Positions 40,555 to 42,449 are shown, counted from the stretch's first letter. The stretch: DNA of 64,000 bases from Escherichia coli (GCF_002854065.1 NZ_CP024147.1); one strand, 5' to 3'. Notes: generated by a model not told the origin, from the sequence alone. Program-made: numbers and translations.

Positions 40555-40618
40555 CCTTTATCCTTCTCGTCAGACAGCAAAGATTTCGTTACAGCATAGC
40601 GGTTAATCAATGGGAAAA

Positions 40619-40628
40619 CCTTGCTTTC
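40619..40628 (-). promoter_or_regulatory. Candidate Ada box upstream of alkA
   Basis: Minus-strand GAAAGCAAGG resembles the AAAGCAAA-type Ada site; lies about 65-75 bp upstream of the alkA start. Confidence 0.3.
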
Positions 40629-40687
40629 ATATTCCTGTTGCCGCCATCACCACATTCCGCTAAAGTCGCCCCCCTTTCTTCACTGGC

Positions 40688-42055
40688 ATGGGGATGATTG
40701 ACGTGTTTATTGGTTTTGACTACGGGACGGCGAACTGCTCTGTCGCCGTGATGCAGGATGGCGCACCGCGCATGCTGATGATGGAAAACGGCAGTTCCCT
40801 ACTGCCGTCCATGCTGTCGGCCCCGACCCGCGAAGCGGTCAGCGAGTGGCTGTACCGCCACCATCAGGTACCGGCAACGGGTGATGAAACTCAGGCGCTG
40901 TTGCGTCGGGCGATGAACTACAACCGCGACGAAGATATCGAGGTACTGGGCAATAGCGTGCAGTTCGGCCTCGCGTCGCTCAAGCAGTACATCGACGATC
41001 CGGAAGAGGTGTACTTTGTTAAGTCGCCTAAATCCTTCCTCGGCGCTAGCGGGCTGAAGCCGCAGCAGGTCGCCGTCTTCGAAGATCTGGTCTGTTCGAT
41101 GATGCTGCATATTCGCCAGCAGGCGCAGTCACAGCTTCAGGAAACCATCGAGCAGGCGGTAATTGGTCGCCCGATTAACTTCCAGGGTCTGGGTAGCGAT
41201 GAAGCCAACACGCAGGCGGTAGGTATTCTGCAACGCGCGGCGCAGCGTGCCGGCTTCCGCGACGTGGTTTTCCAGTACGAACCGGTCGCCGCCGGTCTGG
41301 ATTTCGAAGCCAGCCTCAGCGAAGAAAAACGCGTGCTGGTGGTCGACATCGGTGGCGGCACCACCGACTGCTCGGTGCTGCTGATGGGGCCGCAGTGGCG
41401 GACCCGTCATGACCGCGAACAGAGCCTGCTCGGCCACAGCGGCTGTCGCGTGGGTGGTAACGATCTGGACATCGCGCTGGCGTTTAAAAGCCTGATGCCG
41501 CTGCTCGGCATGGGCGGCGAAACCGAAAAAGGCATCGCCCTGCCCATTCTGCCGTGGTGGAACGCGGTGGCGATCAACGATGTTCCGGCGCAGACCGACT
41601 TCTACAGCTCAGCCAATGGCCGCCTGCTGCGTGATCTGGCGCGCGATGCCCGCGATGCGGAAAAGGTCTCCCTGCTCTACAAGGTATGGCAGCAGCGTTT
41701 AAGCTATCGTCTGGTGCGCAGCGCGGAAGAGAGCAAAATCGCCTTGTCCGAAAGCGCACAAATCGATACCCACCTGCCGTTTATCAGCGACACGCTGGCC
41801 ACCGCCATCAGCCAGGACGGGCTGGAAGCGGCGCTGAACCAGCCGCTGACTCGCATTCTTGAACAGGTGCAGTTGGCGCTGGAAAACAGCAGTGAAAAGC
41901 CGGACGTTATCTATTTAACCGGCGGCAGCGCGCGCTCGCCGCTGATTAAAAAAGCGCTGGCCGAACAGCTGCCTGGCATTCCCGTTGCCGGTGGCGACGA
42001 TTTTGGCTCGGTCACCGCCGGTCTGGCCCGCTGGGCGCAGGTGGTTTTCGCCTGA
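40688..42055 (+). CDS. yegD: Hsp70-family chaperone-like protein YegD (actin-like ATPase fold)
   Basis: 455 aa; N-terminal FIGFDYGTANCSVAV phosphate-1 motif and DIGGGTTD phosphate-2 motif. Confidence 0.9.
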   Translation: MGMIDVFIGFDYGTANCSVAVMQDGAPRMLMMENGSSLLPSMLSAPTREAVSEWLYRHHQVPATGDETQALLRRAMNYNRDEDIEVLGNSVQFGLASLKQYIDDPEEVYFVKSPKSFLGASGLKPQQVAVFEDLVCSMMLHIRQQAQSQLQETIEQAVIGRPINFQGLGSDEANTQAVGILQRAAQRAGFRDVVFQYEPVAAGLDFEASLSEEKRVLVVDIGGGTTDCSVLLMGPQWRTRHDREQSLLGHSGCRVGGNDLDIALAFKSLMPLLGMGGETEKGIALPILPWWNAVAINDVPAQTDFYSSANGRLLRDLARDARDAEKVSLLYKVWQQRLSYRLVRSAEESKIALSESAQIDTHLPFISDTLATAISQDGLEAALNQPLTRILEQVQLALENSSEKPDVIYLTGGSARSPLIKKALAEQLPGIPVAGGDDFGSVTAGLARWAQVVFA

Positions 42056-42137
42056 TCTATCGCCATTGACTTCGCTGTTTTTTCGACCTATTGTAAAGGA
42101 ATGAGGGTAAGGGAGGATTGCTCCTCCCCCTGGTATC

Positions 42138-42197
42138 TTAGTAAGCCGGTAAGCTAATGACTAAGAGTATTACCAGTATGATGACTAGCCTCATCAT
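42138..42197 (-). CDS. Ibs-family type I toxin peptide (19 aa, hydrophobic)
   Basis: Minus-strand ORF ATGATGAGGCTAGTCATCATACTGGTAATACTCTTAGTCATTAGCTTACCGGCTTACTAA translates to MMRLVIILVILLVISLPAY; AAGGAAAG Shine-Dalgarno 5-6 nt upstream. Confidence 0.65.
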   Translation of the reverse strand: MMRLVIILVILLVISLPAY

Positions 42198-42215
42198 AAC
42201 CCTTTCCTTATAAAA

Positions 42216-42247
42216 GGCCCCTTCGTCAGGAGGGGCTTTCCTGTTTT
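42216..42247 (+). terminator. Intrinsic terminator (putative Sib sRNA terminator)
   Basis: GCCCCT-tcgtcagg-AGGGGC stem-loop followed by TTTCCTGTTTT. Confidence 0.55.
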
Positions 42248-42369
42248 AGCGCCCTGCTAAACGCCGCTGACGGTAGCACACGCGGCGATTGCGCGGTTTT
42301 TCATCGCCGCGGATTGCGAGGAGCCTCGTAAAGCTGACGCGATTCAGACGATTCCTTCCGTGTTTCATA

Positions 42370-42386
42370 TTTCCTCCATTTTTCCC
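42370..42386 (+). promoter_or_regulatory. Candidate BaeR-box-like sequence in the mdtA promoter region
   Basis: TTTCCTCCATTTTTCCC lies 64-80 bp upstream of the mdtA start; resembles the TCTCCA-containing BaeR site as I recall it. Confidence 0.25.
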
Positions 42387-42449
42387 GAGCGTTCCGTTAC
42401 TAAACTAGTATCATTTCGTGAAATGATTCAGGACGAGACACCTATAACG

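Follow-up and report, generated by a model that had tools for sequence, protein, structure and literature searches.

The rfb region has been described as a recombination hot spot (review PMC7685785). For the O8, O9 and O9a O-antigen clusters of Escherichia coli, a derivation from Klebsiella has been proposed, through an inter-genus replacement at his-rfb. The stretch analysed here comprises 64,000 nucleotides (nt) of E. coli DNA (GCF_002854065.1, NZ_CP024147.1), referred to as the window, and the subject is its interval between yegD, which encodes an Hsp70-family protein, and mdtA, the gene of an efflux-pump adaptor. In the K-12 record the order of genes is yegD, yegI (-), yegJ (+), pphC (-), yegL (-), sibA/ibsA, sibB/ibsB and mdtA, with a distance of 4989 base pairs (bp) from yegD to mdtA. 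The window has a spacer of 394 bp at this point (42056-42449), which contains one Sib/Ibs module and the mdtA promoter. In all likelihood, this arrangement arose when about 67 kilobases (kb) of an E. coli lineage, from inside sbcB to approximately codon 231 of mdtA, were replaced by homologous recombination from a Kluyvera close to Kluyvera georgiana.

Comparison of the junction with K-12

The features on which the comparison rests are given below, numbered from the first letter of the window.

1-43140 (no strand): in-window part of the recombinant tract, from the profile of identity to K-12, with a Kluyvera match for 32705-43140
39697-40554 (-): alkA, DNA-3-methyladenine glycosylase 2, from its open reading frame (ORF), the Pfam domains AlkA_N and HhH-GPD, and RefSeq; Kluyvera-type allele
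40703-42055 (+): yegD, Hsp70-family protein, from Pfam HSP70; Kluyvera-type allele, the ORF of which also opens at 40688
42250-42449 (+): upstream and promoter region of mdtA, Kluyvera-type in comparison with K. georgiana and K-12
42450-43703 (+): mdtA, chimeric in a three-way alignment

A preliminary description of this DNA had given yegI, yegJ, yegK (pphC) and yegL as separating yegD from ibsA/mdtA in K-12, and the K-12 record agrees with that order. It had also placed the yegD stop at 42055 and the mdtA start at 42450 with approximately 400 bp between them, as the measured spacer bears out. Its further claim, that the yegI-yegL block is absent, is upheld: a tblastn search with K-12 YegI, YegJ, PphC (YegK) and YegL gave zero matches within the 64-kb window, with control loci of K-12 and Escherichia positive. 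This absence is a fact of presence or absence, and chance is not at issue. The spacer is free from remnants of yegI or yegL, as judged by tblastn of the window and by comparison by eye with both K-12 junctions, and in the latter comparison flanking direct repeats were not seen. Homology to K-12 restarts approximately 10 nt upstream of the -35 box of sib.

The two loci share the same flanks, yegD and mdtA, in the same orientation, and in both of them Sib/Ibs lies immediately upstream of mdtA. The window differs in that it has no kinase, phosphatase or vWA genes and no yegJ, carries one copy of sib/ibs as opposed to two, and is Kluyvera-type throughout up to the middle of mdtA. The K-12 YegI protein is a serine/threonine (Ser/Thr) kinase and PphC is a PP2C phosphatase (bioRxiv 10.1101/819920, 10.1101/303594). 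A Pfam search of the block proteins found VWA and PP2C_2, with YegI giving no Pfam match at 1e-5. YegL, PphC and YegI may resemble the vWA-PP2C-kinase “TerY-P triad”, a lead that was checked at the level of Pfam domains.

Probable foreign origin of the junction

In a blastn profile against K-12, the window shows 67-89% identity from its first letter to approximately 43000, with a mean of approximately 77%, and 98-100% identity beyond approximately 43250. Over the stretch from approximately 43250 to 61306 the identity is 96-100%, one patch of approximately 600 bp in baeS excepted. The switch from 67-89% to 98-100% implies that the genome is that of an E. coli carrying a large foreign tract, with the yegD-mdtA junction inside it. 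The absence of the block had previously been read as a local indel in the present genome. This reading does not hold, as the window from 1 to approximately 43140 appears to be a foreign, Kluyvera-like tract that keeps the gene order of its donor.

The right end of the tract can be placed closely. When the mdtA sequences of the window, of K-12 and of K. georgiana are aligned, the informative sites form a long Kluyvera-type run to 43139 and are E. coli-type from 43145. The right recombination crossover is located between these two positions, inside mdtA. The encoded MdtA is predicted to be chimeric, with codons 1 to approximately 231 of Kluyvera type and the remainder of E. coli type. The 5′ portion of mdtA, of which 691 nt lie in the tract, is 93.8% identical to K. 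georgiana, as against 79.2% for the 3′ portion, which is 98-100% identical to K-12. The 3′ part of mdtA and the mdtB gene of K. georgiana are only approximately 80% identical to the window.

For the donor search, the YegD protein was scanned against one genome per bacterial species. The best match was K. georgiana ATCC 51603, at 98% amino acid identity, with four other named Kluyvera species at 93-94%, an Enterobacteriaceae isolate at 91%, Pseudocitrobacter at 87-89% and Escherichia at 84-85%. The Kluyvera comparison sequence spans window 32705-50052. Within it, window 32705-43140 is collinear with K. georgiana, and the alignment of 10,438 nt has 2 gap positions and a DNA identity of 92.6%, compared with approximately 77% to K-12. 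For yegD the DNA identities are 94.5% and approximately 77%, respectively. The spacer (42056-42449) is 96.7% identical to that of K. georgiana, both being exactly 394 bp, and the 250-bp chunk 42251-42500 reaches 100%. The other Kluyvera loci compared, from three named species and an isolate (L011), stand at approximately 80% DNA identity.

The K. georgiana ATCC 51603 locus (NZ_LXEU01000039.1, L005) has the same gene order as the window from yegH to mdtA, including one sib/ibs, but it differs by 7.4% in sequence and its dgcE-like gene is intact. The probable donor is thus a relative of K. georgiana within Kluyvera, distinct from the type strain. For window 1-32704, which holds the O52 rfb and colanic-acid genes, we infer a Kluyvera origin from the unbroken divergence.

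The baeS patch (51453-52059, approximately 600 bp) is a separate observation. It holds approximately 80 mismatches to K-12, with 86.6% identity in the 500-bp chunk 51501-52000, and it is surrounded by 99% E. coli-type DNA, with 8.3 kb separating it from the main crossover on its left. The patch is 100% identical in only three of 5426 complete genomes (SY3626, 100416 and CUWW06); in nearly all other matching genomes it is less than 90% identical, with two at 90-95%. It may represent a second, non-contiguous foreign piece.

Layout of the junction across Enterobacteriaceae

The layout was surveyed in 80 species-representative loci, Salmonella not being among them. The classes found were as follows.

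yegD directly followed by mdtA, with spacers of 151-720 bp: 60 of 80 loci
yegI-pphC-yegL after yegD: 3 of 80 loci, all of them Escherichia and none with yegJ
Other insertions after yegD: 4 of 80 loci
No mdtA within at least 4 kb (Klebsiella, Raoultella and some Enterobacter): 9 of 80 loci
Too little downstream DNA: 4 of 80 loci

The preliminary description had named direct adjacency in K-12 and most relatives as the observation that would speak against it. K-12 itself does not have the two genes adjacent, whereas three quarters of the surveyed loci (60/80) do. As most non-Escherichia relatives show direct adjacency, the direction of the comparison has to be corrected: the K-12 arrangement is derived, though nearly fixed in E. 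coli, and that of the window is ancestral among enterobacteria. Judged from these layouts, yegI-(yegJ)-pphC-yegL is an insertion peculiar to Escherichia, located after the stop codon of yegD and before the promoter of sib.

The genes that follow yegD vary elsewhere in the family. In K. pneumoniae (L063, 9556-12215), the place of mdtA after yegD is taken by genes for a 7TMR-DISM histidine kinase and an OmpR-type response regulator. Enterobacter sp. 10-1 (L022, 9787-15342) likewise has a 7TMR-DISM kinase and an OmpR-type regulator there and, in addition, a sodium:dicarboxylate symporter (SDF). Raoultella terrigena (L030) was seen to have an insertion of similar size, 6.4 kb. In Enterobacter sp. 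ENT03 (L034, 9322-12385), genes for a class A beta-lactamase and for a PhoX alkaline phosphatase lie at the junction, and in E. cloacae an insertion sequence (IS) element does.

The number of sib/ibs copies at the junction ranges from 0 to 4, and from 1 to 4 among Escherichia. One copy is present in the spacer of Kluyvera, most Citrobacter loci, Yokenella and one Trabulsiella locus, and one or two in Pseudocitrobacter. The sib gene is absent from Enterobacter hormaechei, Kosakonia, Lelliottia, Leclercia and others. It was considered whether these negative calls were an artefact of blastn; however, Rfam likewise found no Sib at the gathering threshold in the eight such loci that were checked.

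The block within E. coli

Of the 5426 complete E. coli genomes, 5394 (99.4%) have the yegI-yegL block at a coverage of at least 80%. Its sole commonly variable part is yegJ, which is lacking in a class of genomes at 82% coverage; strain variation in yegJ has also been noted in a preprint (10.1101/819920). The window interval 40555-42449 is 99.9-100% identical in only five of the 5426, and in all other E. coli matches yegD is at approximately 80% identity or less. Against the same genomes a deletion probe was run, an artificial query in which the 3′ end of K-12 yegD is joined to the 5′ part of sibB-mdtA. The two arms are adjacent in only two genomes, 19-5 and ET5, and both events differ from that of the window.

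Strain 19-5 carries a true deletion: its flanks are E. coli-type (96.9% to K-12), yegD is joined to ibsA and a 108-bp remnant of yegI persists. It shows that local deletions exist, and together with the one to four sib/ibs copies of Escherichia it can be counted in favour of a simple loss of yegI-yegL from an ordinary E. coli chromosome at an indel-prone junction. For the window this explanation has next to no probability, as both flanks of the junction are Kluyvera-type and not E. coli-type, the spacer follows that of K. georgiana in sequence and length with no trace of yegI or yegL, and the block is kept by nearly all complete E. coli genomes.

In ET5 (NZ_CP101014.1, L088), the dgcE-alkA-yegD tract is divergent, at 80-92% identity to K-12, and closest to Escherichia loci. 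Identity at the level of E. coli resumes at the sib locus, and yegI-yegL are deleted apart from short remnants of yegI and of the region upstream of yegL. The ET5 tract is an independent recombination event that ends at the same junction. A divergent, Escherichia-like tract of this kind, ending at sib and lacking the block, could also suggest an ancient Escherichia polymorphism, in which a deep lineage with the ancestral yegD-sib-mdtA order was recombined into E. coli with no import from Kluyvera. The probability of this is very small. The tract of the window is nearer to K. georgiana, in DNA as in YegD, than to any Escherichia locus; it has none of the remnants that ET5 retains, and the other sampled Escherichia species carry the block.

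In total, approximately seven of the 5426 complete genomes are without the block, namely the five Kluyvera-type genomes, 19-5 and ET5. The interval had been called a variable, indel-prone junction. The first half of that claim stands, since the cargo differs across Enterobacteriaceae and the yegD-mdtA junction is variable at the level of the family. The second half does not, given that the block is retained in 5394 genomes: within E. coli the junction is not indel-prone.

The Sib/Ibs module in the spacer

The spacer encodes one type I toxin-antitoxin module.

42066-42249 (+): single Sib antitoxin RNA gene, from Rfam RF00113 and a consensus scan for promoter and terminator
42138-42197 (-): ibs toxin ORF of 19 amino acids, MMRLVIILVILLVISLPAY, from translation; RefSeq “Ibs family toxin”

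The covariance match to RF00113 (SIB_RNA) at 42066-42212 (+) scores 150.2 bits (E=1.4e-32), the gathering score being 56, and is full-length, covering model positions 1-147 of 147. The consensus scan predicts a sigma-70-like promoter for Sib, TTGACT-17-TATTGT at 42066-42094, and an intrinsic terminator formed by a hairpin (42214-42239) and the T-rich tail that comes after it. The ibs ORF lies wholly inside the Sib gene on the opposite strand, and its product is hydrophobic. When aligned with IbsA (MMKHVIILVILLVISFQAY) and IbsB (MMKLLIIVVLLVISFPAY) of K-12, the window Ibs is similar to both, with 15 of 19 residues identical to IbsA. The Pfam family PF13956 (Ibs_toxin) is recorded for the gene at the same position in carrier loci that are virtually identical to the window at 40-43 kb.

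The features shared with the Sib/Ibs family are the full-length Sib match, a predicted promoter and terminator of its own, and the fully overlapped ORF on the opposite strand. The module differs from Sib/Ibs elsewhere in being a single copy and a Kluyvera allele. By these sequence features it is an ordinary member of the family, with nothing unusual in it. The IbsA of Salmonella has been reported to inhibit the F1Fo ATP synthase, and its gene is placed at yqiK-rfaE, not at yegD-mdtA (preprint 10.1101/2025.05.26.656083).

Extent and content of the tract

Within the window, the O52-type rfb genes and galF belong to the tract, as do the colanic-acid cluster, yegH, asmA, dcd, udk, the dgcE-like gene, alkA, yegD, sib/ibs and the first 691 nt of mdtA. 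Over the two stretches compared, 40555-42449 and 1-9000, the window and the complete genome CUWW06 show 100% identity. In CUWW06 the left crossover is marked by a drop in K-12 identity from 98.8% to 81% inside sbcB, at approximately 2,900,250; the DNA to the left of it, in the 5′ part of sbcB, is at 98.8%. The part of the tract to the left of the window (NZ_CP182139.1 2,900,250-2,924,337; L085) carries gnd, ugd, the his operon, plaP and tsuAB, as far as the crossover in sbcB. A lambdoid prophage lies immediately to the left of sbcB in NZ_CP182139.1.

The genes yeeY, yefM-yoeB and wzzB, all present in this region of K-12, are missing from the tract. The absence of wzzB fits an ABC-transporter (wzm/wzt) pathway for O52. 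The guanine plus cytosine (G+C) content is 34-39% in the O52-type genes (window 1-8000), 48% at 24-26 kb and 52-60% in most of the remaining tract. The exact O52-type cluster occurs in only four of the 5426 complete E. coli genomes. At the Rfam gathering threshold, JUMPstart elements were found at 7716-7754 (-) and 31886-31923 (-), where they precede the O-antigen and colanic-acid operons, and near cpsG there is an algC RNA motif at 17402-17451 (-); such elements are expected in operons of these kinds.

Carriers, haplotypes and the dgcE-like gene

In the public assembly collection, 1083 blocks are indexed as holding the exact YegD protein. Ten places sampled for it are all E. coli-type downstream of mdtA, and none of the ten is from Kluyvera. 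They include genomes of isolates, a contig from a gut metagenome and an assembly from Logan, and are all alike in gene order. They show 0-5 mismatches per kb to the window over 40-43 kb, inclusive of the mdtA crossover, and vary in the E. coli-type DNA downstream of the tract. Near-identity of ten independent carriers across the crossover is consistent with one origin and speaks against an artefact of assembly.

This bears on the question of whether the genome is mislabelled, or an assembly chimera or a product of contamination with Kluyvera, as might be suggested by five RefSeq genomes named E. coli in which yegD is only approximately 80% identical to that of other E. coli. Such an explanation is given a negligible probability. 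Apart from the baeS patch, identity to K-12 is 96-100% from approximately 43250 to at least 61306, and it is 98.8% to the left of the crossover in sbcB. The same junctions recur in five complete genomes from various countries and sources as well as in the ten sampled assemblies and metagenome contigs, and the number of collection blocks with the exact YegD also stands against it.

The carriers (L090-L099) fall into two Kluyvera-like haplotypes, 1-4% apart, between approximately 30 and 39 kb. K. georgiana is at roughly the same distance from each of them, with 91-94% identity. SY3626 belongs to the same lineage and shows IS-mediated loss of the O52 genes and of part of the colanic-acid genes.

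37421-39760 (+): dgcE-like diguanylate cyclase gene, MASE1-PAS-GGDEF by Pfam and without EAL

This gene, of approximately 780 codons as against 1105 in K-12 DgcE, overlaps alkA by 64 bp at its 3′ end. An in-frame stop at 39131-39133, flagged by RefSeq as an internal stop, divides it into ORFs at 37421-39133 (570 amino acids) and 39155-39760 (201 amino acids). The orthologue is intact in K. georgiana (779 amino acids) and in the carrier GCA_900449495.1 (L099; 756 amino acids). The intact copy in one carrier suggests that the stop arose after the import.

Other features of the window

To the right of the tract, two ORFs of 98 codons each lie between yegP and trhP/yegQ at 54170-54764 (+), in a stretch (54001-54775) with no K-12 match. 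They are annotated as ParD antitoxin and RelE/ParE toxin in matching genomes. The cyaR gene is present at 56311-56407 (Rfam, 100.7 bits), and the PR-X prophage remnant that adjoins it in K-12 (ogrK, yegZ; K-12 locus 42210-42812) is absent. The two K-12 fragments of gatR are contiguous here (58737-58739), with no IS3E.

Origin and significance of the tract

The proposed mechanism is a double-crossover replacement with its ends in sbcB and mdtA, inside which the donor-type gene order is kept. The replaced stretch would include the his operon, ugd, gnd, the O52-type cluster, the colanic-acid cluster, yegH-udk, the dgcE-like gene, alkA, yegD and sib/ibs. Because Kluyvera has yegD directly before sib/ibs and mdtA, the replacement would have removed yegI-yegL. 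The loss of the block would be a passenger effect that restored the ancestral yegD-sib/ibs-mdtA adjacency. The DNA could have entered by conjugation or transduction, with RecA-dependent integration in spite of approximately 23% divergence. The surface-polysaccharide genes were probably the target of selection, and yegD-sib-mdtA would have hitch-hiked.

Several points weigh against this account. The closest Kluyvera genome reached is only 92.6% identical, with the true donor species unsampled in that data. The affinity to Kluyvera was established only over 32705-43140, and the left crossover was placed only from the drop in K-12 identity. Lastly, the two haplotypes at 30-39 kb may reflect repeated import or subsequent exchange. 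That the whole tract of approximately 67 kb, inclusive of the O52 cluster, came in a single event from one unsequenced Kluyvera species is judged to have slightly less than an even chance. Neither a Kluyvera donor nor the tract was found reported in the searched literature on Kluyvera with O52, the O-antigen or interspecies recombination.

A passing oddity of gene order has led to the edge of a large inter-genus recombination tract, through which an E. coli would have acquired tens of kilobases only approximately 77% identical to its own DNA. The import would have swapped the O-antigen and colanic-acid genes and removed a module of YegI kinase, PphC phosphatase and the vWA protein YegL. It would also have left one Sib/Ibs in place of two, a Kluyvera-type mdtA promoter, a chimeric gene for the efflux-pump adaptor and a shorter dgcE-like gene that lacks EAL. 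For typing and annotation, genes of the tract such as his, gnd, wca and yegD give a misleading phylogenetic signal in carrier strains. If the whole tract stems from one Kluyvera event, the serogroup O52 of E. coli would be of Kluyvera origin. In the carriers, the YegI/PphC/YegL Ser/Thr signalling module, wzzB and yefM-yoeB would then be knocked out naturally, and a working inter-genus chimeric MdtA adaptor would stand under a foreign mdtA promoter.

The closest parallel is provided by the O8, O9 and O9a clusters. As with these, a wzm/wzt O-antigen cluster sits in a segment organised as that of another genus, flanking housekeeping genes included, and the crossovers are located in conserved genes. 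The differences are a donor that is Kluyvera-like and not Klebsiella, and a tract that includes the colanic-acid cluster and reaches mdtA, approximately 34 kb past galF. It adds one more case to the inter-genus replacements known at the O-antigen locus, and no new mechanism is involved.

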